A stretch of DNA of 43,120 bases from NCBI GenBank assembly GCA_937907535.1, contig CALCID010000067.1, forward strand, positions 1 through 43,120. Direction: 5' to 3'. Both the position numbers and the translations under genes were made by a program. A model generated the notes under the pieces. The model did not search any database. It worked only from the letters and a program-made list of their open reading frames with translations, and was not told the origin of the DNA. Positions 13,453 through 34,287 of the stretch are shown one piece after another; positions within the stretch are counted from its first letter, which is position 1; each line of letters begins with the position of its first letter. The DNA comes from an uncultured bacterium (GTDB lineage: Bacteria; Gemmatimonadota; Gemmatimonadetes; Longimicrobiales; RSA9).

Positions 13453-13729
13453 AGGCTTCGCGGTAGGGCAACCCTGCCGGGTCGAGCACGGAGGGCAGCC
13501 TTCGCGGCGAGGCTGCGTCACCGGGTCGAGCACGAGCACGAGCACGTGCACGAGCACGAGGATGGGGTGACGTTCGCGGTGGCGCCGGATTCTTGGTCGG
13601 GCGGGGGTTCCTGGGCAGCCTTCGCGGTAGGGCTGCCACTCCGGGTCGAGCACGAGTACGAGGTCCACCTTCGCGGTGAGGCTTCGTCACCGGGTCGAGC
13701 ACGAGCACGAGCACGAGCACGTGCACGAG
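13453..13729 (+). repeat. Tandem array A: 4 degenerate copies of a ~50-67 bp repeat (CCTTCGCGG-N13-CCGGGTCGAGCACGAG(CACGAG)n), plus orientation
   Basis: Read directly from the sequence. The units start at 13453, 13491, 13613 and 13663. Each has a conserved CCTTCGCGG and CCGGGTCGAGCACGAG core. The 13-nt middle segment is variable and partly self-complementary. The CACGAG/CACGTG hexamer run varies in copy number between units. Confidence 0.85.
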
Positions 13730-14268
13730 GGGCGGGATGGCGTGTGGGCGGGTCGGGTGGGCGGGCGGGTTGGAGGAGGGTCGGGGTGTGTACGGTCCGG
13801 GAGGTGCACGGGAGGGATCCAGGCGGGTCGGTGACGCGGGCGCGAAGGTGTATGAGCACGCATCCGCCTACCGGTTACGACTACATGTATGGTGGGTGGG
13901 CCGAAGATTGGGCGGGGCCGAGCGGGTGCGTGGATTGAACGGGCAGGCTGGTCGTCGTGAGGGGGGTGCTCGAGCCGGAAGGCCGAGCAGACATGGTGGG
14001 AGAGGCCGCGTGGGAGACGCCGGCGTGCTCGTGGCGGTGTTCGCGTAGGACAGCGCGAGTGTGTGGCAGGATAGCGGCAGGCGGGTTTGGAGGGAGGCCG
14101 GGACCTACCGGGCGATGGGAGCGGCGAGAAGGATGGGGCGGGTTCGCGGTCCGTTCGGCGGGTTGTCCGCTGGCGAGAGGAAGCGGGCGCCCGGGCGCGA
14201 TCCGGCAGGTCGCTTCGCCCTGCGGCATGCACCCGGCGTCGTGGCTAGGGGGACGGACGCCGTGCCGG

Positions 14269-14964
14269 GAGGGCGCACCCTCGAGGGTGCCCGACCCGGA
14301 GGCTGTGTTCATGCGAAGGCGGCGGGCTACGGGTGCCTCGGCCGGCTGCTTGCCTTACGACGAGGGATCGAGCCGTGCCCGAGAACGTACTCGTATCTGC
14401 GGCCGCGCTCGACCCGGCAAGGTAGCACCTCCGCGAAGGTTACCCCGTGCACGTGCACGTGCACGTGCTCGTGCACGACCCGGAAAGGTTGTATTGCCGC
14501 GAGGGCGCACCCTCGAGGGTGCCCGACCCGGAGGCTGTGTTCATGCGAAGGCGGCGGGCTACGGGTGCCTCGGCCGGCTGCTTGCCTTACGACGAGGGAT
14601 CGAGCCGTGCCCGAGAACGTACTCGTATCTGCGGCCGCGCTCGACCCGGCAAGGTAGCACCTCCGCGAAGGTTACCCCGTGCACGTGCACGTGCACGTGC
14701 TCGTGCACGACCCGGAAAGGTTGTATTGCCGCGAGGGCGCACCCTCGAGGGTGCCCGACCCGGAGGCTGTGTTCATGCGAAGGCGGCGGGCTACGGGTGC
14801 CTCGGCCGGCTGCTTGCCTTACGACGAGGGATCGAGCCGTGCCCGAGAACGTACTCGTATCTGCGGCCGCGCTCGACCCGGCAAGGTAGCACCTCCGCGA
14901 AGGTTACCCCGTGCACGTGCACGTGCTCGTGCTCGTGCACGACCCGGAAAGGTTGTATTGCCGC
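14269..14964 (-). repeat. Tandem array B: three near-identical 232-bp units, each built from ~4 degenerate copies of the same repeat family in the opposite orientation and each carrying a 16-bp perfect palindrome GCACCCTCGAGGGTGC
   Basis: The sequence GAGGGCGCACCC recurs at 14269, 14501 and 14733, giving an exact 232-bp period. Units differ only by single substitutions in the (CGTGCA)n tract. The array ends 13 nt before the ATG at 14978. Confidence 0.9.
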
Positions 14965-14977
14965 GACGGTTGCCCCA

Positions 14978-16042: not shown

Positions 16043-18235
16043 ATGGAGCGCAGCGACGTCGGCTGCTGGAACCGTGGCGCGTCGGGGACGGCGCGCGGTG
16101 TGGGCCGGGCTCGCGCGGTGACGGGGGCGCGCGGGCCGGCGCGGGCGCGGTGGTGGGGAGGGGTGCTTCTCGTGGCGGCGGTGGCGGCGGCGGTGGTCGG
16201 GCTGCGGATGCCGGCGGCGGCCCAGCAGGCGCTGGTGCTGGGGGGCGGGGGTTCGCGGGGGCTGGCGCACGCGGGGGTGCTGGTCGGGCTCGACTCCCTG
16301 GGCTATTCGCCGGAGCTGGTGGTCGGCACGAGCATGGGCGCGATCATCGGCGCGCTGTACGCGGCGGGGCACGAGCCGGACGCGATCTGGCGGCTGGTGC
16401 TGGAGACGGACTGGCAGGAGCTGTTCACGCCGATGCCCGCGGCGTTCGGGCCGGACCGGCGACTGGTCTATCCGCTGTTCGGCTTTCCGCTGGACGATGG
16501 TCCGGGCGCCCGGCCCCGCGGGCTGGTTCCGGACTGGCGGGTGAACCGGCTGCTCGAGCGGACGCTGCTGGATGCGGGGGTGCGCAGCCGTGGGGATTTC
16601 GATCGGCTGCCGCGGCGGTACCGGGCGGTGACGGCGGACCTGGCGAACGGGAAGGCCGTGGTGCTGGGGCGGGGCGACCTGGCGCGGGCGGTGCGGGCGA
16701 GCATGGCGGTGCCGGGGGTGTTCGCGCCGGTCCTGTGGGACGGGCGGGTGCTGGTGGACGGCGGGATCGCGGACAACCTGCCGGTGGCGGAGGCGGCGGA
16801 GCTGGGCGGCCGGCCGATCGTGGCGGTGGACGTGGTCCGGCCGGACGCGGGGGTGCCGGAGATCGGGTCGCTGAGCTTGGCGATCCGTGCGTTCCGGCTG
16901 GTGCTGGAGAACGCGCGGCCGGACACGATCCAGCCGGACGTGCTGATCCTGCCGGATCTGGGGTCGGGGCTCTCGGAGGCGCTCTTCCCGCGGGATCCGG
17001 AGTGGCTGCTGGAGACGGGGCTCGCGGCGGTGGCCGGGGTCCCGCCGGCGGGGCCTGGCCAGACGCCGGCCCGCGCCCCGCTCCCCGCGCCGGCCCGGCT
17101 GGGCGCGCCGGTGGTGGATGCGGACGATCCGGGGCTGACCCCGCTGGTACGGGCGGCGTTCGGCCGGGAGCTTCCGGGGCCGTACGACCCGGAGGGGCTG
17201 CTGCGGGCGGCGGATCGGCTGTACGCCACGGGGCTGTTCGAAGGGATCTGGCTGCACGTGCCGCCGCGGGGCGGTGGGGCGGACGGGGGCGCGACGGGAG
17301 GCGACGCCGAGCCGGTGGTGGTGCGGGCGGAGGCCACGCCCCGGCTCTCGCTGACCGGCGCGCCGGGCTACGACACGGACCGGGGCGGCCGCGTCTGGGC
17401 GATGCTGGCGGGCCGGGCCGGGGCCGGAGCCACGCCCGTGGAGCTCTCGCTGGCCGGGCACATGGACGGGCTGGGCGGGGGCGGGACCGCGGCGGCGCGG
17501 GTCGTGCCCGCGGCGCTGCTCCCGTTCTCGGTGAGCGCGGGCGCGCATTTCGTGGAGACGGACCGGCGGATCTTCGACCGGGGCGGCGTGCGGGGGGAGG
17601 TCGAGGTCCGGCGGGCCGGCGGGTTCCTCGGGGTCGAGCGGCTGTGGATCGGGCCGGACCGGTGGCTCGTGGCGCAGATCCGGGCGGAGTCGGTGCGGCA
17701 GGAGGGGGGACTCTCGGGCGCTTCCGTCGGCCCGGCGCTGCGCTGGGAACGGGCGGACCGGCTGACGCGGATCGTGGGGGAATCGCCCCTGGTGGAGGCG
17801 GAGGCCCGGTTCGGCGAGGTGGATTACCGCCGGGCGCGGGTGCGGGGCGGCGCCGTCTGGCGGCCGGGGTGCTGGTACCTGGCGCTTGCCGGGGACCTGG
17901 CTGCGGTCTCGGACGGCGCGCCGGCGGACGCGGTGCCGGCCCTCGGGGATGAGCGCCTGGTGCCGGGAATGCGCTGGGGCGAGGAGCCGGGCCGGACCCG
18001 GATCGTTGCCGGAGGCGACGTCGCGTACCCCATCCCCCTGGACGGCGTGGTCCGCCTCCGGATCCGGTCCGGCGCCGCGGTGGGGGACGCGGACCGCCTG
18101 AGGGATGGCGGGGCGTGGGTCACCGGCGCGGAGCTCGGCCTCCTCTGGGCCACGCCCTTCGGCCGGATCGAGGCGGCATTCGGCGCGAACACGCGGGGGA
18201 GGAGGCGGGTGGAGGTGGTGGGGGGGAATCCGTGA
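16043..18235 (+). CDS. Patatin-like phospholipase fused to POTRA and an Omp85-like beta-barrel (PlpD-like, type Vd secretion architecture)
   Basis: A signal peptide is followed by the patatin oxyanion motif GGGSRG, the lipase serine motif GTSMG and the catalytic DGG. The Gly/Arg-rich C-terminal ~400 aa is consistent with POTRA plus a beta-barrel. The ATG at 16043 is the chosen start but is uncertain. Confidence 0.7.
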   Translation: MERSDVGCWNRGASGTARGVGRARAVTGARGPARARWWGGVLLVAAVAAAVVGLRMPAAAQQALVLGGGGSRGLAHAGVLVGLDSLGYSPELVVGTSMGAIIGALYAAGHEPDAIWRLVLETDWQELFTPMPAAFGPDRRLVYPLFGFPLDDGPGARPRGLVPDWRVNRLLERTLLDAGVRSRGDFDRLPRRYRAVTADLANGKAVVLGRGDLARAVRASMAVPGVFAPVLWDGRVLVDGGIADNLPVAEAAELGGRPIVAVDVVRPDAGVPEIGSLSLAIRAFRLVLENARPDTIQPDVLILPDLGSGLSEALFPRDPEWLLETGLAAVAGVPPAGPGQTPARAPLPAPARLGAPVVDADDPGLTPLVRAAFGRELPGPYDPEGLLRAADRLYATGLFEGIWLHVPPRGGGADGGATGGDAEPVVVRAEATPRLSLTGAPGYDTDRGGRVWAMLAGRAGAGATPVELSLAGHMDGLGGGGTAAARVVPAALLPFSVSAGAHFVETDRRIFDRGGVRGEVEVRRAGGFLGVERLWIGPDRWLVAQIRAESVRQEGGLSGASVGPALRWERADRLTRIVGESPLVEAEARFGEVDYRRARVRGGAVWRPGCWYLALAGDLAAVSDGAPADAVPALGDERLVPGMRWGEEPGRTRIVAGGDVAYPIPLDGVVRLRIRSGAAVGDADRLRDGGAWVTGAELGLLWATPFGRIEAAFGANTRGRRRVEVVGGNP

Positions 18236-18392
18236 GCCTTCGTCGTAATGCTACCTTGCCGGGTCGTGCACGAGCACGAGCACGGGGGCAGCCTTCGTCG
18301 TAAGGCCACCTTTCCGGGTCGAGCACGTGCACGAGCACGAGCACGAGCACGGGGCAGCCTTCGCGGCGGGGCTACCTAGCCGGGTCGAGCGC
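18234..18392 (+). repeat. Tandem array C: 3 copies of the same repeat family, plus orientation, starting at the stop codon of the patatin gene
   Basis: The units are GCCTTCGTCGTAATGCTACCTTGCCGGGTCGTGCACGAG..., GGGCAGCCTTCGTCGTAAGGCCACCTTTCCGGGTCGAGCACGTGCACGAG(CACGAG)n and GGCAGCCTTCGCGGCGGGGCTACCTAGCCGGGTCGAGCGCGG. Confidence 0.85.
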
Positions 18393-18460
18393 GGGTGTGA
18401 GGCTCGGCGAACGCGCTCCCCCACATATCCGAGCGCGGCACCTACTCCGCCATCCCCTCC

Positions 18461-18948: not shown

Positions 18949-19101
18949 CGTGCACGTGCTCGTGCTCGTGCACGACCCGGAAACGCAGCCCAACCGCGAA
19001 GGTTGCCCCGTGCACGTGCTCGACCCGGAAGCGCAGCCCTGCCGCGAAGGCTGTCCCCCGTTCACGACCCGGATAGGTAGCCCTACCGCGAAGGCTGCCC
19101 C
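18949..19101 (-). repeat. Tandem array D: 3 copies of the same repeat family in minus orientation; the last copy overlaps the 3' end and stop codon of the decarboxylase gene
   Basis: The reverse complement reads GGGGCAGCCTTCGCGGTAGGGCTACCTATCCGGGTCGTGAAC / GGGGACAGCCTTCGCGGCAGGGCTGCGCTTCCGGGTCGAGCACGTGCACGG / GGCAACCTTCGCGGTTGGGCTGCGTTTCCGGGTCGTGCACGAG(CACGAG)n. Confidence 0.85.
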
Positions 19102-20543
19102 TTCTCCAGCCAGTCCAGCACCCGATCCACGTCCTCCTTCCGGGTGCGGTGGTTCAGGATGCACATGCGCAGCGCGTACCGGCCGTGGATCCGGGTGGAC
19201 GAGATCATGCCGAGCCCGCTTTCGAGGAGCCCCCGGACGAAGGCGGCGTTCAGGTCCTCGAGCTCGGACTCGTCCATGGCCGCGCCGGCCGGCGGCACCC
19301 GCCGGAAGCACACGACGCCCAGGCTCGCGGGCGAGAGCAGCTCGAAGCGGTCGGACTCGCGGATCCGCCGCTCCGCATGCGCGGCCAGGTCGAAGGCGTT
19401 GTCGATCGCGGCGCGGAACCGCTCCACCCCGAAGACCTTCAGGGAGGTCCAGATCTTGAGCGCCCGGGAGCAGCGCGTGAGCTGGATCCCGTAGTCGCCG
19501 AAGTTGACCTCCCGGAGCTCCGCGGGCGCGTCGTCGTCCGGGGCCACGTCCTGGAGGTAGTCGGCGAACATGCTGAAGGTGCGGGGGAGCCGCGCGCCCT
19601 CCCTGACCAGGATGCACCCGGCCTCGTAGGGCTGGAACAGCCATTTGTGGGGGTCGAGCGTGATGGAGTCGGCGCGCTCGATCCCTTTCAGGAGCTGGCG
19701 GCCCCGGGCGGTCAGGACGGAGAAGCCGCCGTACGCCCCGTCCACGTGGTACCAGACGCCGTGCTCGGCGCAGACCTCGGCCAGCTCCCGGAGCGGGTCG
19801 ACGGCGCCGGTGCTGGTGGCGCCGGCGCTGGCGCACGCGAATAGCGGCCGGAGCCCGGCTTCCCGGTCCTCCCGGATCGCCCGGTCGAGGGTCTCGGGCG
19901 CGAGCCGGAACGCGTCATCGGTCGGGAGGACGCGGACGCGGTCCGGGCGGAAGCCGAGGGTCCGGGCGGAGCGCTCCATGGAGGAGTGGGTCTGGTCGGA
20001 GACGTAGACGACCAGGTCGTCCGCGTGGGCGCCGGCGAGGGCGGCGCGGGCGCAGACCAGGGCGGTGAGGTTCGCCACGGAGCCGCCACTGACCAGGGCC
20101 CCGGCCGCGGAGGTCGGGTAGCCGATCCACTCCTTGAACCAGTCGAGGACCACCAGCTCGACCTGGGTGGGCCCCGCGGACGCCAGCCAGGTGCCCTGGA
20201 ACACGTTGAACCCGGCGGCCAGCATGTCGGCCAGGATCCCGGGCCAGGTGGGGCAGCCGGGGATGAAGGCGAAGGCGCGGGGGTGGTCGTTCTTCCCGGT
20301 GAAGGGGAGAACGTCGGTCAGGAGCCGGTCCAGGACCAGGTCCGGGTCGGTGGGTCCGTCGGGCGGGGGCTCACGCAGCCGGCGCTCCATTTCTTCGCGG
20401 GTCGCGCCCCGCCAGGCGACGTCCGCGTCCAGCCCCGAGATCCGCTCGACGATGGTGTCGATGACCCGGTAACCGAGCCGGCGCATGGTTTCCGGGTCCA
20501 GCTCGAGGGCGTGGTCCGGCATCGGATATCCGAGCTTGGCCAT
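19083..20543 (-). CDS. PLP-dependent group II amino-acid decarboxylase (aromatic-L-amino-acid / diaminobutyrate / glutamate decarboxylase family)
   Basis: 486 aa with the PLP-lysine motif SITLDPHKWL and S-x-H (DQTHSS) region typical of group II decarboxylases. The last codons GQPSR-stop are encoded by a repeat unit. Confidence 0.85.
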   Translation of the reverse strand: MAKLGYPMPDHALELDPETMRRLGYRVIDTIVERISGLDADVAWRGATREEMERRLREPPPDGPTDPDLVLDRLLTDVLPFTGKNDHPRAFAFIPGCPTWPGILADMLAAGFNVFQGTWLASAGPTQVELVVLDWFKEWIGYPTSAAGALVSGGSVANLTALVCARAALAGAHADDLVVYVSDQTHSSMERSARTLGFRPDRVRVLPTDDAFRLAPETLDRAIREDREAGLRPLFACASAGATSTGAVDPLRELAEVCAEHGVWYHVDGAYGGFSVLTARGRQLLKGIERADSITLDPHKWLFQPYEAGCILVREGARLPRTFSMFADYLQDVAPDDDAPAELREVNFGDYGIQLTRCSRALKIWTSLKVFGVERFRAAIDNAFDLAAHAERRIRESDRFELLSPASLGVVCFRRVPPAGAAMDESELEDLNAAFVRGLLESGLGMISSTRIHGRYALRMCILNHRTRKEDVDRVLDWLEKGQPSR

Positions 20544-20547
20544 AGGA

Positions 20548-21291
20548 CTACGCCGCCGTGAGGATCAGGGGCTGATCCCGCGTGATCACGATGGTGTGCT
20601 CGTGATGCGCGGCCAGGCTGCCGTCCGCGGTGGTGATGGTCCACCGGTCCGGGCGGGTCCGGGTGCGCCACGAGCCCGCGGAGACGATCGGCTCGAGGGC
20701 GATGACGAGTCCCTCGGTGAGCGGTTCCCGCGCCGCGGGGTCGTAGAAGTTCAGGACCTCGGGCGGCTCGTGGATGGCGCGGCCGATGCCGTGCCCGCAG
20801 AGCTCGCGGAGCACGGTGAAGCCGCGTCGCCGGACCTCGCGCTCGACCTCCCGGCCGATGACGGAGATGGGCGCGCCGGCGCGGGCCACGGCCGCGGCCT
20901 TCCAGAACGCGGCCTCCGCGCAGTCGCGCAGCGCGATGGCGAGGGGGCTGGCCGGGGGGACGACGACGGTGACCGCCGCGTCCGCGAAGTACCCGTCCAG
21001 CTCGATGGTCACGTCGAGGGTGACCAGGTCACCTTCCCGGATGACCCGGTTTCCGGGCACGCCGTGCACCGCCTCTTCGTTGACGCTGATGCACATGGTG
21101 CCCGGGAATCCGTACTGGAGGCGGGGCGCGGATCGCGCGCCGTGCCGCTCCAGGACCTTGTCCGCCAGCGCATCCAGCGCGGCCGTGGTGATGCCGGGCC
21201 GGACCGCGGCGGTGAGCTCTTGGAGGACGTCCGCGACGACCGCGCCCGCCCGCTGGAGCCCCTCCAGATCCGCCGCCGTTTCTATAGACAC
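20548..21291 (-). CDS. map: Type I methionine aminopeptidase
   Basis: 247 aa from the GTG at 21291, which has GGGAG 6 nt upstream. Metal-ligand context matches MAP type I (D in DLVTLDV, GHGIG, LTEGLVIALEP, EHTIVIT). The stop is 4 nt before the decarboxylase start, indicating an operon. Confidence 0.85.
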   Translation of the reverse strand: MSIETAADLEGLQRAGAVVADVLQELTAAVRPGITTAALDALADKVLERHGARSAPRLQYGFPGTMCISVNEEAVHGVPGNRVIREGDLVTLDVTIELDGYFADAAVTVVVPPASPLAIALRDCAEAAFWKAAAVARAGAPISVIGREVEREVRRRGFTVLRELCGHGIGRAIHEPPEVLNFYDPAAREPLTEGLVIALEPIVSAGSWRTRTRPDRWTITTADGSLAAHHEHTIVITRDQPLILTAA

Positions 21292-22231
21292 GTCAATCTC
21301 CCGTCGTCGTAAGAAAATCGTGGATATACGAAAGATAGGACGACCCCCGGCCATTCGGGAGGGGGCGGGGGGTCGCGCGGAGCGGCGGCCGTGAGCGGGC
21401 ATCCGGTCCCGCGGAATGCGGGAACGACCGCCGGTCGGGACGCCCGCCGGCGGTGGGGGCGTCCCGAGAGCGGGCGTGGGGATGGGGTGATTTCGCGCGA
21501 AATCCGGGCGCTGGAGGTGGGTGGGTGCGCCGGCGCAGCCCCGGGTACGGCCGAGCCTGCGGCAGCGAGGCCTGAAGGCCGCCGGCCGGGAGGCGCCGGG
21601 TCGGGGGTGGTCGGTTGGGGCGGGGCGCGTTGCCGAGAGCGCCGAGCCCGTCGCGGGATGCAGATTCGAAGCGCCGGCGGGGGTGGCGGTCCGTTTCGCG
21701 CGCCCTCGATTCCGGGTGGGCGGTCGTCGCGGGGGCATGGGACGGGTGCAGCGGGATCCGTCAGGGCGGCGAAACGCCGCCGCGGCGGGGCGGGACGGGC
21801 GATCGGCGGGAGCTCGGGTCGGGGCATGGCACCGCCCCGTGGGCGCGGGGCGGCTTCGAGCGCGGGCCGGGACCGAGCGGTCCGCAGACCTGCACCCTTG
21901 CCGGGCGCATCCGGGCGGCGCCCGCGCGGTCACGGGCGCAGAGGCGCATGCGCCCCGGCGCGGGAGCCGGCGCCGCCGCGGACGGGCGGTCCGCGGGGGG
22001 GCGTGCGCCGGACGACGTCGCCCGATGGAAGAGCGTTGCCGGCCCGGGCAGGCGAGCGGGGCGGCCGCCCGGGACGGCGACAGTCCGGGGCGAGCCCCTC
22101 CCCGGGCGGGCGGATGGGCCGGTGCGCGCCGGTGCCGCGGGCACGACCCGTGACGGGCGGCCGACGACGCGGCCGCCGAGCGCCCAAAAGCACGTCATCG
22201 GCCCGCCGTGGAGGGGCGGACCGGCCCGGAA

Positions 22232-22272
22232 AGCGCGAACGCCCGCGGGAGAGACCCTCCCACGGGCGTTCG
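22232..22272 (-). terminator. Hairpin downstream of the cold-shock gene (GAACGCCCGTGGGAG ggtc TCTCCCGCGGGCGTTC on the minus strand)
   Basis: A ~15-bp stem with one G-U pair starts ~20 nt after the csp stop. Only a short T tract (GCGCTTTCC) follows, so it is weak as an intrinsic terminator. Confidence 0.4.
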
Positions 22273-22292
22273 GCTCGAGCGTGGCTCCCGGT

Positions 22293-22592
22293 TTAGAAGC
22301 GGCTCTGGTAGCGGCCGGCGCCGAAGCGGCCGCCGCCCTGCCCGCCCTCACGCCGCATCGGGCGGCGCGGCGCCTCGGCCGGCGGGTTCAGGCGCACGAC
22401 GTTCTGGGCCTTGGGGCCCTTGGCCTCCTCGACCACGTCGAACTCGACCTCTTCGCCCTCATAGAGGACCTTGAAGCCGGTCCCCTCGATGGCGCTGTGG
22501 TGAACGAAGACGTCCGCGCCCTCCTCCGGGGTCAGGAAGCCGTAGCCCTTCTCCTGGGAGAACCACTTGACGGTGCCTCTGGTACGAGCCAT
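22293..22592 (-). CDS. Cold-shock domain protein (CspA family) with Arg/Gly-rich C-terminal tail
   Basis: From the ATG at 22592 (RBS CAGGAG): [37 protein letters not shown]... contains RNP1 (KGYGFL) and RNP2 (VFVHH). The ~30-aa tail is [20 protein letters not shown]. Confidence 0.8.
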
Positions 22593-22695
22593 CGCTGTAC
22601 TCCTGTGGTGTATCGGTAACGTGCGTCGGGGGTTACGGTGCGATGTCCCGTACCCTCTGACCAGATTGCCGCGTAATGCGCCCGCGGCCGGCGAT

Positions 22696-22736
22696 AACAA
22701 AAAGGGACCTGCGTGTCGTGTGTGCGCAGGTCCCGG
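22696..22736 (-). promoter_or_regulatory. Terminator-like hairpin plus T5 inside the cold-shock gene leader (GGGACCTGCG cacacacgaca CGCAGGTCCC TTTTT on the minus strand)
   Basis: A 10-bp perfect stem is followed by TTTTTGTT, ~110 nt upstream of the csp ATG on the same strand. It is a candidate attenuator or thermosensor in a long cold-shock 5' UTR. Confidence 0.4.
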
Positions 22737-22954
22737 ATCACTGCTGTGCTACAGACTACCCGCGTACCTGTGACGGCCGTCGGTCATCGTCCGGCCGTTC
22801 ACGCTGCGCGGGAAGATAAGGATGTGGCCAGGCGTTTGTCAAGAGTGACGTTAGGCGGACCGCAAGGGGGCCGCGCGGGTAGTTGGGAGCGGCGGTGCCG
22901 GGCCGCTGGACAGGGGTGCGCCGGGGTCGTGGAGGGGCCTGTCCGGGTGCGCGA

Positions 22955-22983
22955 TTGACGCGGGCGGGGTGGCGCGGTACCGT
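22955..22983 (+). promoter_or_regulatory. Candidate sigma-70-like promoter TTGACG-N17-TACCGT
   Basis: The -35 element is a near-consensus hexamer, the spacer is 17 nt and the -10 element is weak. It lies ~65 nt upstream of the ATG at 23049 and divergent from csp. Sequence pattern only. Confidence 0.25.
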
Positions 22984-23048
22984 GACGGTGGGTGAGTTCT
23001 GGCTCGCGGGAGCCAGGGAACGCTGACCTCAGACCGAACGAGTTGACG

Positions 23049-23390
23049 ATGGCTACGACGGAACGTCGCGCTGCCGCGGGGAGCGGCGTGTCTCGGTTCC
23101 GCGTCTCGGACGCGTATCGGATCCCGTTGCGGGGTTACATGCTGCGGCTGAAGCTGGTGGAGGGCGAGCCGCGGCTGAGCGTGCTGAAGCCCGGGCGGCG
23201 GGTGACGCTGCGGGCGCCGGATGGGTCGAAGCGGGCGGTGCGTGTGGTGGGTCTGGCGACCACGTACGGGCGGCCGACGGAGGAGGGGCTGCGGTCGAAG
23301 GGGGAGATCGACATCGTGATCTCCGAGGCGGATGCGGTGGGGGATGGCCGGGTGGTGGCGATCGGTTGGGAGGTCCTGGGCTCGGCGTGA
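23049..23390 (+). CDS. Hypothetical small protein (beta-barrel-like, ~113 aa)
   Basis: Clean ORF. The ATG at 23049 was chosen; the GTG at 22992 is an alternative. No motif was recognised. Confidence 0.4.
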   Translation: MATTERRAAAGSGVSRFRVSDAYRIPLRGYMLRLKLVEGEPRLSVLKPGRRVTLRAPDGSKRAVRVVGLATTYGRPTEEGLRSKGEIDIVISEADAVGDGRVVAIGWEVLGSA

Positions 23391-28967: not shown

Positions 28968-31484
28968 ATGGGAGCCGGGAAGGGAACGGACGGTCGGCGG
29001 GCGGGCCGGGCGCTGGCCTGGGCGCTTCCACCGCTGGTGCTGGTGGTGATGGTGTCGTGGGTGCTGTGGCAGAACTGCGGCCTGGCGGGATGCCCGGACG
29101 TGGAGCTGCTGCGGGGGTACGTGCCGGAGGAGGCGTCGGTGGTGGTGGACCGGGAGGGGCGGGAGCTGGCGAAGCTGTACCGGGTGAGGCGTACGGTGGT
29201 GCCGCTGGACTCGCTGCCGCCGTACGTGCCGGCGGCGGTGGTGGCGGTGGAGGACCGGCGTTTCTGGGAGCACGGCGGCGTGGACTGGCAGCGGGTGGTT
29301 GGGGCGGCGCTGGTGAATCTGCGGGCGGGGCGTTTCCAGCAGGGGTTCAGCACGATCACGATGCAGCTGGCGCGGAACCTGTTCCCGGACCGGCTGCCGG
29401 CGCACGAGCGGACGATCTCGCGGAAGCTCGCGGAGATGCGGGTGGCGTTCGAGATCGAGGCGAAGTACGACAAGAAGGAGATCCTGGAGCTCTATCTGAA
29501 CCAGATCTATTTCGGGAACGGCGCCTGGGGGATCGACGCGGCGGCGGGCGAATATTTCGGGAAGCGGGCGTCGGAGCTGACGCTGGCGGAGGCGGCGCTG
29601 CTCGCGGGGATCGTGCGGGCGCCGTCGCGGCTGAATCCGCGGGTGAACCCGGATTACGCGGTGGGGATGCGGAACGTGGTGCTCCGGCGGATGGTGGAGC
29701 AGGGGCTGGTGTCGGTGGTGGAGGCGGAGGCGGCGTCGCGGGAGGAGTTGAAGCTGGCGCGGGACCGGGTGGACGTGGTGGAGCCGGCGGCGTACTTCGT
29801 GGAGCAGGTGCGGCGGCAGGTGGAGGCGCGGTTGGGGGAGGCGGTGTACACGGGCGGGCTGCGGATCCGGACGACGCTGGATCTGCGGGTGCAGGAGGTG
29901 GCGGAGGAGGAGCTGAGCCGTCAGCTCCGGGCGATCGAGTCGGGGGAGCTGGGCCGGTACACCCGGCCGGTGTACGCGGGGCCGCGGGAGGATGAGGAGC
30001 CGGGTCCGTACTCGCCGTATCTGCAGGGCGCGGTGGTGGTGCTGGACGCGCGGCGTGGGGACGTGCTGGCGTGGGTGGGGGGGCGGGACTTCCGGGACTC
30101 GAAGTTCGACCGGGTGGTGCAGGCGAAGCGTCAGACGGGGAGCGCGTTCAAGCCGTTCGTGTACGCGGCGGCGCTGGCGGCGGGCTATCCGCCGACGACG
30201 ATCCTGGATGACGTGCCGATGCGGATGGAGCTGGCGGGGGGTCAGGTGTGGGCGCCGCAGAACTTCGGGGGGAGCTACGCGGGTCGGATCACGATGCGGC
30301 AGGCGCTGGTGCAGTCGCGGAATGTGGCGACGGTGCGGCTGGCGCAGCGGGTGGGGCTGGAGGCGGTGCTGGATCTGGCGGGCCGACTGGGGCTGAACGG
30401 GTTGCCGGCGGTGCCGTCGGTGGTGATCGGTTCGGGTGCGGTGACGCTGCTGGATCTGACGGCGGCGTATGCGGCGTTCGGGCGTGGCGGGCGGCGGCCG
30501 GTGCCGCGGCTGATCCTTAGCGTGAAGGACCGGCGGGGCCGGGAGCTCTGGCCGCGGGCGCCGGAGCCGAAGCGGGTGCTGGATCCCGGGGTGGCGTTCG
30601 TGGTGACGGACCTGATGCGGGACGTGGTGGACCGGGGGACGGCCACGTCGATCCGGCGGGTGGGTTACTGGGGCCCGGCGGCGGGGAAGACGGGGACGAC
30701 GAACGATGCGACGGACGTGTGGTTCGTGGGGGTGACGCCGGAGCTGGCGGCGGGGGTGTGGGTGGGGTTCGACCGGCCGCGGACGGTGGTGCCGGGGGCG
30801 ACGGGCGGGGAGGTGGCGGCGCCGATCTGGGGCCGGATCATGCGGCGGATCGCGCCGGCGGATGCGCCGGGCTGGAGCCCGCCGCCGGGGGTGGAGGTGC
30901 GGGAGGTGGACGAGTGGGGGAACGTGGTGGCGCCGGGCTGTTACGTGGTCGGGCCGACGCGGCCGGAGTACTTCCTGGCGGGGACCGCGCCGCCGGCGCG
31001 GTGCGGTGGCGGGTATGCCCGGGGGTGGGGAGGCCGGTCGCCGGGGGACACGGTGGACCTGCCGGGCACGCCGCAGGAGGAGGCGTTCCATCGGCGGGTA
31101 TGGCGCCGGTTCTTCGGTGCCGAGCCGAACACGGGGGAGGCGGGCGCGGGGCGGGGGCGGGCACCGGCGGCCCCCACGGACAGCGGCGGGCTCCTGGGCC
31201 GGCCCGTGGACACGGTCCGGGCGCGCCCGTCGGAGCGCGAGCCGCGGGGGGAACGGCGCCGGGAGGAGGCGGAGGAGCGACCGCCGGACACGGTTCGCGA
31301 GCGGGGTGGCGGTGCGCGTCGTCCGGCGGAGCCGGCGCGGCCGGACACGGTGCGCCCTCCCGCCTCTCCGCCGGCGGGCGAGGGTGCGGAGCGCCCCGCG
31401 AGGCGGGACCGGCCGCGGCGGCTCCTAGGCCGTCCCGTCCCGGACCGGGCGCCGCCGGGCGCGCCGGTCGTGCCGCCGCCCTGA
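28968..31484 (+). CDS. Class A penicillin-binding protein (PBP1A-type: transglycosylase plus transpeptidase) with ~150-aa Pro/Arg-rich C-terminal tail
   Basis: TM anchor, GT51 motifs (EDRRFWEHGGVD, GFSTITMQLARN, RKLAEM), and transpeptidase SxxK (SAFK), SRN and KTGT motifs. The start is the ATG at 28968; the ATG at 28881, with GAGGA 7 nt upstream, is an alternative. Confidence 0.8.
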   Translation: MGAGKGTDGRRAGRALAWALPPLVLVVMVSWVLWQNCGLAGCPDVELLRGYVPEEASVVVDREGRELAKLYRVRRTVVPLDSLPPYVPAAVVAVEDRRFWEHGGVDWQRVVGAALVNLRAGRFQQGFSTITMQLARNLFPDRLPAHERTISRKLAEMRVAFEIEAKYDKKEILELYLNQIYFGNGAWGIDAAAGEYFGKRASELTLAEAALLAGIVRAPSRLNPRVNPDYAVGMRNVVLRRMVEQGLVSVVEAEAASREELKLARDRVDVVEPAAYFVEQVRRQVEARLGEAVYTGGLRIRTTLDLRVQEVAEEELSRQLRAIESGELGRYTRPVYAGPREDEEPGPYSPYLQGAVVVLDARRGDVLAWVGGRDFRDSKFDRVVQAKRQTGSAFKPFVYAAALAAGYPPTTILDDVPMRMELAGGQVWAPQNFGGSYAGRITMRQALVQSRNVATVRLAQRVGLEAVLDLAGRLGLNGLPAVPSVVIGSGAVTLLDLTAAYAAFGRGGRRPVPRLILSVKDRRGRELWPRAPEPKRVLDPGVAFVVTDLMRDVVDRGTATSIRRVGYWGPAAGKTGTTNDATDVWFVGVTPELAAGVWVGFDRPRTVVPGATGGEVAAPIWGRIMRRIAPADAPGWSPPPGVEVREVDEWGNVVAPGCYVVGPTRPEYFLAGTAPPARCGGGYARGWGGRSPGDTVDLPGTPQEEAFHRRVWRRFFGAEPNTGEAGAGRGRAPAAPTDSGGLLGRPVDTVRARPSEREPRGERRREEAEERPPDTVRERGGGARRPAEPARPDTVRPPASPPAGEGAERPARRDRPRRLLGRPVPDRAPPGAPVVPPP

Positions 31485-31857
31485 GGGCGATCGTGGCGCC
31501 GGGCCGCGGCCGCCGGCCGGTGGGCGGCCGCGCCCCTGCGGGCGCGCATCCCCCGTGTTGACAACGGACCCGCCGCTTGCGATTCTGCCCCGCCGACCTT
31601 CGCGCACCGCACAGGGTCGTTCACGTGCCGGAGGGAGTCTCGAGGCGGACCGGAGCATCGGTGCCTCGGACGGGTGCGCGTCAATCCGTACCGCGCCGGC
31701 AAGTCCTTTCCGCCATTGCGCGTGTGGAGGTGCGGGGACGGGGCCGCCGGAGCAGCCTCGGGCGGATCGGGGGGAGCGGTGCGGGGTCGGGCCGACACGA
31801 CGCCGACGTCACGGCTCGGCGTCTTCCCATCATCCAGTCGGTGACCATGGAGGGTAC

Positions 31858-33117: not shown

Positions 33118-33720
33118 ATGGCGGACATCAACGTTGAGCGCAAGAGCCCGTCGATCTGGCCGTGGATCGTTGGCCTGCTGGTTCTCGCGCTGCTGATTTG
33201 GGCGATCGCGGAGATGGTCCGGACGGAGCCGGAGACCGCCCCGGTCGCGGAGACGGAGCCGATGACGCCGCCTGCGGCCGTGCCGTCGCCGGCGGAGAGC
33301 CAGCCGGTCCCGCTGCAGACGCTGGCGCCGCTGGGCTCGGAGGACTCGGGCCGCATGGTCCAGACCCGGGGCACGGTGGTGGGGAAGCCGACGGAGGAGG
33401 GGTACTGGCTGCTCACGGATCAGGACATGGTGATCTTCGTCCTGTCGGCGGACGATCCGGAGACGGGCCAGATGGTGGAGATCACGGGGCAACTGCGGCC
33501 GGCGCGGGGGGAGCAGGTCGATCGCTGGCTGGAGCTGGCGGAGCTCCGGCCGGCGGCGGGCTGGAACCTGCACCGGGAGCATTTCATCGCGGTGATGCCG
33601 GCGGCGGGCGCGCCGGTGCAGCCGAGCACGCAGCCGGGCGGGCAGCAGCCCGGTGCCCAGCAGCCGGGTGGGCAGCAACCCGGCGGGCAGCAGTCGGGCT
33701 CGTCGTCTTCGAGGCCGTAG
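33118..33720 (+). CDS. Single-pass membrane protein with Pro-rich linker and C-terminal (QQPGx)n repeat
   Basis: A strong RBS AAGGAGG lies 9 nt upstream of the ATG at 33118. The TM helix is IWPWIVGLLVLALLIWAIA. The C-terminus is QPGGQQPGAQQPGGQQPGGQQ. Confidence 0.6.
   Translation: MADINVERKSPSIWPWIVGLLVLALLIWAIAEMVRTEPETAPVAETEPMTPPAAVPSPAESQPVPLQTLAPLGSEDSGRMVQTRGTVVGKPTEEGYWLLTDQDMVIFVLSADDPETGQMVEITGQLRPARGEQVDRWLELAELRPAAGWNLHREHFIAVMPAAGAPVQPSTQPGGQQPGAQQPGGQQPGGQQSGSSSSRP
33634..33696 (+). repeat. In-frame 15-nt tandem repeat (CAGCAGCCSGGYGSS)x4 encoding QQPGx
   Basis: The nucleotide periodicity is visible directly at the 3' end of the CDS 33118-33720. Confidence 0.7.
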
Positions 33721-34062
33721 GGACGGGGCTCGCCGGGCGGACGCGCCGGGCCGGGTGAGGTCCGGCGGCTGCCCGGCCCCGATGCGCGAAGCGGCCCGCC
33801 GAGGCGCGCGGCTCCGGCCGCGCGCTTCGCACGTCTGTGTTCCGGGGAGGCCGCGCCGGCGGGCGGTACCGGGCGGGGTGGTCGGGCGCCGAGAGATCGG
33901 TCGGAATTCCCGGATCGGGGTCGAAGCTGGAGTGTTCGCGCGGCGGCGCCGTAGCGCGGCCGCGCCGTGGTGTGAACGAGTCGGCCGCGGGCCGGCGCCG
34001 TGCGGGAGGGGTGAGCCATCCCGGGCGGCGCCGCCGCGCCGTGCATGATCTGGAGAGGGACA

Positions 34063-34287
34063 ATGAATCGACGTCCACGCCGGGCAGGGCCGCTCTGGGC
34101 CTGGGTGCTCGGACTGCTCATCCTCATCGTGGTCATCTGGATCCTGGTCACCCGGTCGGGCGGAGGCGAGGAGGCCGCGGCGGCGGCCGCGCCGGGCGGG
34201 TTCCCGCCGGCGGCGGAGGTCGCGGGTACGACGTCGCCTACAACGATCCCCGAAGCGGGCGCCGTGGCGGAATTCCTGCGGGTCTAG
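34063..34287 (+). CDS. Small single-pass membrane protein, paralogous in its TM segment to the upstream 200-aa protein
   Basis: The ATG at 34063 has GGAGAGGGA upstream. The TM helix LWAWVLGLLILIVVIWILV is compared with IWPWIVGLLVLALLIWAIA. Confidence 0.5.
   Translation: MNRRPRRAGPLWAWVLGLLILIVVIWILVTRSGGGEEAAAAAAPGGFPPAAEVAGTTSPTTIPEAGAVAEFLRV

Follow-up and report, generated by a model that had tools for sequence, protein, structure and literature searches.

Background

Gene-loss scars and eroded pseudogenes are a general phenomenon in bacterial genomes. The locus considered here raises the question of what occupies the roughly 1 kb of DNA that separates map, the gene for a methionyl aminopeptidase, from the cold-shock gene csp in the genome of an uncultured bacterium. 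This organism is probably a member of the Longimicrobiales (Gemmatimonadota), as judged from its nearest named homologues and from shared synteny. The window, i.e. the whole stretch of DNA that was analysed, comprises 43,120 nucleotides. A sequence-only reading had placed a region without any credible gene at positions 21292 to 22292, in otherwise tightly packed surroundings, and had offered three options for it: a structured non-coding RNA (ncRNA), a decayed gene or a long regulatory leader. The gene-free region is real and its coordinates are exact. In this paper, we have examined its coding potential, its conservation in a sister species, its polymorphism, its RNA content and the gene order of more distant relatives; it looks like an ordinary gap and not like a hidden RNA or protein gene.

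Results

Position, composition and coding potential of the gap

The gap and the genes around it are as follows.

19083-20543: gene of a PLP-dependent decarboxylase, 1461 nt
20548-21291, minus strand: map, type I methionyl aminopeptidase; GTG start at 21291-21289, ribosome binding site (RBS) GGGAG at 21298-21302
21292-22292, no strand: gene-free gap, 1001 nt, GC content 0.79 overall and 0.82-0.85 in the middle part
22293-22592, minus strand: csp, cold-shock domain and Arg/Gly-rich C-terminal tail

The map product matches PF00557 (E = 3e-42) and TIGR00500 (274.6 bits, against a cutoff of 171), and map lies 4 nt upstream of the decarboxylase gene; the csp product matches PF00313 (E = 3e-26), and its Arg/Gly-rich tail comprises residues 68-99. 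The same gap sequence recurs in assemblies of independent origin (ENA, Logan, JGI and NCBI), and thus is no assembly artefact. While the GC content of the window is 72.8%, that of the gap (0.79-0.85) is higher than the genome mean of 0.73 and lower than that of 4-fold degenerate sites (~0.96), so that a 'neutral equilibrium' cannot be asserted for it.

The GC content at the three codon positions of the genuine genes in the window is roughly 0.72/0.50/0.94, whereas that of the gap is flat, with 0.72-0.90 in any phase. By phase, the gap interior shows 0.84/0.77/0.80 (chi2 p = 0.12), compared with 0.93/0.51/0.75 for map (p = 8e-25); the phase dependence has p = 4e-11 in csp and p = 0.09 in the corresponding gap of the sister species described below. 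Neither gap, therefore, has the three-base periodicity or the GC3 excess typical of the genome by this test, and residual periodicity, which was considered as a sign of a dead gene, is not significant in the gap. The gap region forms the longest non-periodic stretch of the window (1050 nt), followed by others of 660, 600, 480 and 480 nt, so that the surroundings are tightly packed only in a rough sense. The segments 31231-31831 (600 nt) and 33661-34141 (480 nt) are likewise GC-rich (0.78-0.79) and devoid of codon periodicity; they may be spacers of the same kind or else coding DNA of low complexity.

The ORFs of the gap had been described as Arg/Gly/Pro low-complexity translations, and this description is accurate: Arg, Gly, Pro and Ala together make up 62-72% of the long ones, against 36-38% of the map and decarboxylase products. 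The longest stop-free run in the gap has 326 codons, compared with 268±50 in shuffled sequences, 21% of which reach 326; such lengths are thus to be expected, as composition alone yields them. No Pfam domain was found in seven ORFs of the gap, in the three complete minus-strand frames or in the six frames of the sister gap.

Comparison with a sister species

A sister species is represented on Logan contigs, with a Map protein (P0026) 89% identical and a decarboxylase 78% identical to those of the window. The two species share the gene order paa genes, methyltransferase, 177-aa ORF, epimerase, 113-aa ORF, csp, gap, map and decarboxylase, and the sister gap has 1320 nt (contig L088, 4681-6000). 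A genome collection scanned with Map gave at least 80 loci, none of them syntenic and the best of the matches listed at 68% identity, and Map homologues at 69-71% identity lie in different gene neighbourhoods.

The flanks of the gap share ~84% DNA identity with the sister locus, and their 4-fold degenerate sites are 67-71% identical. On the csp side, the flank alignment ends just beyond the terminator, at 22238; on the map side, it ends by the RBS, at 21301, 10 nt upstream of the map start codon. Between these points, the best local alignment of the two gap interiors scores 33, against 27.6±3.4 for shuffled sequences; the intergenic region upstream of csp, taken as a control, scores 195 against 13.6. 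The 456-nt non-coding region that precedes csp (locus 22293-23048) is strongly conserved in the sister species and is probably a long csp leader. A permissive global alignment of the two gaps detects residual collinearity (z ~4.5 overall), with z = 4.1 for the segment from the dyad described below to map and z = 2.3 for that from the terminator to the dyad. The sister gap carries a 56-bp tandem duplication (copies 76% identical; L088, 5717-5817) between the dyad island and map. This duplication explains a portion of the difference in gap length, which thus stems from small indels and duplications.

On this basis, the gap can be divided into the following parts.

21292-21385, minus strand: conserved region beside map, presumed to hold promoter and 5'UTR of the map-decarboxylase operon
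21303-21308 and 21339-21344: arms of a 6-bp inverted repeat, GTCGTC ... GACGAC, around a 30-nt AT-rich loop
21470-21504, no strand: conserved island of ~35 nt, with the dyad TTTCGCGCGAAA (21491-21502) inside a 14-bp palindrome ATTTCGCGCGAAAT
21505-22235, no strand: distal interior, GC-rich, G-rich on the plus strand, not demonstrably conserved
22236-22272, minus strand: predicted intrinsic-terminator hairpin of csp, 16-bp arms (94% complementary), 5-nt loop, short weak T-tract

The csp hairpin folds at -49.5 kcal/mol (z = -5.6) and its sister copy at -38.5 (z = -5.0), and it is the sole part of either gap that is matched by a DNA profile built from distant relatives. Like rho-independent terminators in general, the predicted terminator at 22236-22272 consists of a long GC-rich stem directly past the csp stop codon with a T-rich tract, and it is kept in orthologous loci and across relatives. 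It differs from them in that its T-tract is weak here (CGCTTTCC), with a better one in the sister species (TTTCGTTTCT), and that a simple consensus scan missed the hairpin.

At the other end of the gap, ~90 nt beside map show ungapped similarity to the sister sequence, including CCTATCTT (21332-21339) and GGAGATTG around the RBS. In a MAFFT alignment of the 430-520 nt upstream of map, only these last ~90 nt gave a convincing alignment, and the two dyads did not fall opposite each other. The map promoter presumably lies within 21292-21385; a sigma-70 consensus scan returned no site and is uninformative, since none is expected at such a GC content. The low-GC patch and the inverted repeat that had been pointed out beside the map start are both present, and the patch is the sole place in the gap where 30 nt have a GC content of at most 55%. 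As a hairpin, on the other hand, the inverted repeat does not hold up: its fold is not significant against shuffled sequences (z = +0.59), and the sister species bears a different small hairpin, CAAGGtgtCCTTG, in its place.

The conserved island lies ~200 nt upstream of map and is referred to here by its shared element TTTCGnnCGAAA. The dyad TTTCGCGCGAAA is perfect and is followed by CACCCCATCCCCACGCCC on the map-sense strand; the sister gap (L088, 5680-5715) has the same TTTCGnnCGAAA plus CACCCCAyCCmCACGCCC, its island reading TTTCGTTCGAAA and then CCACGTCACCCCACCCACACGCCC. Among the loci retrieved (904 kb in all), the gaps of these two species are the only places with the dyad pattern; in the window, the dyad occurs once, with 0.27 occurrences expected. 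No RNA fold signal was detected at the island, which, if functional, is more likely a candidate protein-binding site than an RNA element. The distal interior, by comparison, has no Pfam or Rfam match, carries sequence variants at 21613, 21668, 21946 and 22099, and aligns locally with the sister gap no better than the shuffled null; it is apparently unconstrained.

Polymorphism within the two species

Contigs from ENA, Logan, JGI and NCBI that encode an identical or near-identical Map were taken as the same species; they are 99.8-99.9% identical to the window. Seven variants were found in the gap, at 21412, 21454 (a 1-bp indel), 21467, 21613, 21668, 21946 and 22099. Outside the gap, the first set of contigs has one variant in the decarboxylase gene (19686) and none in csp or map. 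In a wider set, the 1461-nt decarboxylase gene has two variants, both synonymous, and csp again none; these contigs were picked by their Map variants, which biases the map count upward, and that count was left out, as was one short contig end misaligned across 21617-21782. The sister population has 10 variants, including two indels, in its 1320-nt gap, against one in 1666 nt of map and decarboxylase.

A gene called on the gap

A protein-coding gene is annotated on the gap in the NCBI, JGI, ENA and Logan assemblies alike, with 293 or 301 codons.

21391-22296, plus strand: 301-aa ORF (ORF301; 293 aa in some strains), gene call in public assemblies, judged spurious

High-GC DNA yields spurious long ORFs, hence the use of FramePlot/GC3 analysis for actinomycete-like genomes. 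Stop codons are rare at ~80% GC, and ORFs of 200-330 codons arise in several frames, with much Arg, Gly, Pro and Ala in translation and with no GC3 periodicity. ORF301 differs from such ORFs in nothing and is a textbook case: its composition is 70% Arg, Gly, Pro and Ala, it has no codon periodicity, and its length is expected by chance at the composition of the gap. The long Arg/Gly/Pro ORFs of the gap, ORF301 included, would thus be by-products of the ~80% GC.

One might still take ORF301 for a genuine, very fast-evolving, intrinsically disordered Arg/Gly-rich protein, as gene finders call it in every assembly and also call an ORF, of 270 aa, on the same strand of the sister gap. These two ORFs have no similarity to each other (E = 7), however. 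ORF301 has no NCBIfam match, its sole match among 5.8 billion proteins is its own 90% cluster, and an exhaustive phmmer scan of 1.84 billion representatives returned only ORF301 itself. Furthermore, the segregating 1-bp indel at 21454 shifts the frame and alters the first 22 residues, upon which gene finders choose the 293-aa version, and all of the six substitutions in the gap are non-synonymous in the ORF301 frame. Neither conservation in the sister species nor purifying selection was seen for the ORFs of the gap, and ORF301 runs antisense across the stop codon and the terminator of csp. The 293/301-aa gene call is probably spurious, and we consider a real protein behind it extremely unlikely.

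RNA, structure and repeats

The covariance-model search that had been proposed for the gap was run with Rfam 15. No match reached the gathering score anywhere in the window, and at E ≤ 10 the matches within 21100-23100 were at chance level; a single one has E < 1, a piece of the cspA thermoregulator model inside the csp coding sequence, with 25 bits against a threshold of 78. A permissive scan of the sister locus likewise gave matches at chance level only, and no tRNA or tmRNA gene was found. The fold of the whole gap has z = -1.88 on the minus strand and -1.95 on the plus strand (20 shuffles each), a weak and symmetric signal that is partly due to the csp terminator. Covariation could not be counted, since the gap interior is not alignable to that of the one related species available.

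An RNA function nevertheless deserves to be weighed. The gap would then be transcribed, either as a lineage-specific ncRNA or as a long leader at the 5' end of the map-decarboxylase operon, with its start close to the dyad island or still further upstream. The gap has kept a length of 1001 and 1320 nt in the two species, a conserved dyad island is found 200-310 nt upstream of map, the gap folds with a z of about -1.9, and no sigma-70-like promoter was placed beside map, so that transcription could start far upstream. Against this, neither species has an Rfam family in the gap, and the interior is unalignable although another intergenic region is strongly conserved between the same two species. 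Indels and substitutions segregate freely in the gap, the fold signal is as weak on one strand as on the other and stems in large part from the csp terminator, and the dyad carries no RNA structure signal. The long ncRNAs and leaders known from bacteria (OLE, GOLLD, HEARO, ROOL and riboswitch leaders in Rfam) resemble the gap only in size and in a long intergenic site upstream of an operon; unlike them, it matches no covariance model, is not conserved in the sister species and shows no clearly strand-specific fold signal. With neither an Rfam match nor sister conservation beyond the edges, the structured ncRNA and the long leader proposed earlier find no support, and we regard a functional RNA as rather improbable.

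Other structural candidates were rejected. The gap contains one G-quadruplex-type (G4-type) motif, compared with 35 on the plus strand of the window, and thus is not special in this respect. Over the whole window, there are 35 such motifs on the plus strand and 3 on the minus strand, regardless of gene orientation; runs of three or more G occur at ~35 per kb and runs of three or more C at ~13 per kb, and the GC skew is positive nearly throughout. Repeats within the gap, tandem ones included, are short pairs at chance level, and no second copy of the gap was found elsewhere in the window.

The window does contain a family of short interspersed repeats, at 13460-13730, 14263-14966, 18235-18393 and 18949-19101, with none in the gap. 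Its unit consists of a hairpin, GGCAGCCTTCGCGGnnGGGCTGCC, a core, CCGGGTCGWGCACG, and a run of (GAGCAC/GTGCAC)n hexamers. The core has 33 matches in the window, against 4.6 expected, with ~18 good copies in the four intergenic areas, one of which holds a 232-bp unit three times at 99% identity. This family looks like a REP- or MITE-like element of the genome.

Gene order in more distant relatives

Two GenBank 'Longimicrobiales bacterium' metagenome-assembled genomes (MAGs), GCA_036381255.1 (L098) and GCA_036375745.1 (L099), encode homologues of the decarboxylase with 63% identity. In both, the gene order is epimerase, AsmA-like, the homologue of the 113-aa ORF (orf113), csp, a gene that we call X246, a GC-rich spacer of ~250 nt and the decarboxylase, and map is missing. 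The 246-aa X246 gene (L098, 6012-6752; L099, 6006-6746) has strong codon periodicity, and its product, clearly a multi-pass membrane protein, matches neither a Pfam nor an NCBIfam family. X246 as a query against JGI metagenomes retrieved six further loci (L100-L105), all with orf113, csp and X246. The proteins have 246-250 aa and are 65-81% identical among each other, and orf113 (divergent, upstream), csp and X246 form a conserved three-gene neighbourhood in these eight Longimicrobiales-like genomes or contigs.

X246 lies directly downstream of csp, with no map there, in all eight relatives (the two GenBank MAGs and six JGI contigs), and it is therefore the ancestral downstream neighbour of csp. 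In the lineage of the window, the gap and map occupy this slot, the gap beginning right after the same conserved csp terminator. The gap thus sits in the same syntenic position as an intact X246, and the distance from the csp stop codon to the decarboxylase start in L098, ~1150 nt, is similar in size to the gaps of 1001 and 1320 nt.

A search for remnants of X246 in the gaps gave no trace. With tblastn, X246 against the gap produced noise only; a profile hidden Markov model (HMM) of eight X246 sequences found nothing in the six-frame translations of both gaps even at E ≤ 1000; and a DNA profile covering X246 ± 250 nt found only the terminator. Frameshift-tolerant profile-to-DNA alignment scored 37.8 for the window gap, against a null of 30.1±3.1 with a maximum of 38.1, and 31.1 against 32.5 for the sister gap, so that no residual similarity emerged when frameshifts were allowed; a deliberately damaged real gene, used as a positive control, scored 477. 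According to simulation, an X246 remnant is detectable unless ~70-80% or more of its sites have been re-drawn. As no X246 residue is detectable, the link between the gap and X246 is positional only.

Discussion

We consider it probable, though well short of certain, that the gap is an essentially unconstrained, non-coding scar of gene loss or rearrangement with functional edges. The observations behind this reading are direct ones: the missing coding signal, the lack of a known RNA family, the lack of conservation, the excess of polymorphism and the positional match with X246. Among the three options offered at the outset, the decayed gene, or leftover DNA, is the one that fits, given the X246 slot of the relatives and an interior that is both unconserved and polymorphic.

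The scar would date from a local change of gene content in the common ancestor of this and the sister species. An ancestral order of orf113, csp and X246, with the decarboxylase next in two relatives, would have turned into csp, 1.0-1.3 kb of GC-rich non-coding DNA, map and the decarboxylase. X246 would thus have been lost and map gained beside the decarboxylase, as a comparison of the gene order of the relatives with that of this lineage indicates. The DNA between csp and map would have drifted since by substitutions, 1-bp indels and small tandem duplications. The parts still at work would be the csp terminator, the ~90 nt of promoter, 5'UTR and RBS at map and, possibly, the 35-nt TTTCGnnCGAAA island; we infer that the remaining DNA is functionless.

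The scar reading leaves the origin of the DNA to be considered separately. An X246 pseudogene is plausible on positional grounds and not demonstrated; we hold it possible that the gap is eroded X246, with the odds somewhat against it, and the remainder falls to DNA that arrived with map or otherwise. Like eroded pseudogenes and gene-loss scars elsewhere, the gap lies in the exact syntenic slot of a gene conserved in relatives, is about the size of that gene together with its spacers, lacks coding signal, and shows excess polymorphism and indels. Unlike them, it has no demonstrable similarity to the lost gene, its pseudogene status being positional, and it persists at 1 kb or more in two species rather than having been deleted.

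Alternatively, the gap might be foreign or duplicated DNA that arrived with map, as the remains of an insertion or recombination, and that has been eroding since. This account differs from the scar reading only in where the DNA came from, not in its present lack of function. It agrees with the absence of map from the slot in all eight relatives, with the lack of any X246 trace in the gap, and with the scant homology, if there is any, of the distal 730 nt in the two sister species (z = 2.3). As to marks of a mobile element or insertion, a search of the gap and the window detected neither terminal repeats, be they inverted or direct, nor pieces of a transposase or integrase, nor second copies. 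Moreover, the gap agrees with the host window in base composition and GC skew, and the closest Map homologues, among the matches listed, come from the same order. We rate an arrival with map, the main alternative origin, as unlikely.

Two observations do not sit easily with a scar that drifts freely. The conserved dyad island means that some constraint remains in the gap, and both species have kept more than 1 kb, although bacteria usually show deletional bias. The latter could hint at a length-dependent or sequence-independent role. The spacer might be functional through its length or composition and not through its sequence. It could, for example, form a C-rich leader or a G-rich template tract of rapidly changing sequence, which would shield the map-decarboxylase operon from read-through out of csp or modulate its transcription, with the TTTCGnnCGAAA dyad as the operator of a regulator; we regard this as very unlikely.

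The finding raises no larger question. Its value lies foremost in annotation: the 293/301-aa 'hypothetical protein' of the public assemblies should not be counted as a gene. For the biology of this lineage, the locus would be a tidy small case of gene turnover, in which a membrane-protein gene was probably lost and map gained beside the decarboxylase gene, and which may have left behind a kilobase of fast-drifting DNA in which only a terminator, a single short dyad and the segment next to the promoter are conserved.
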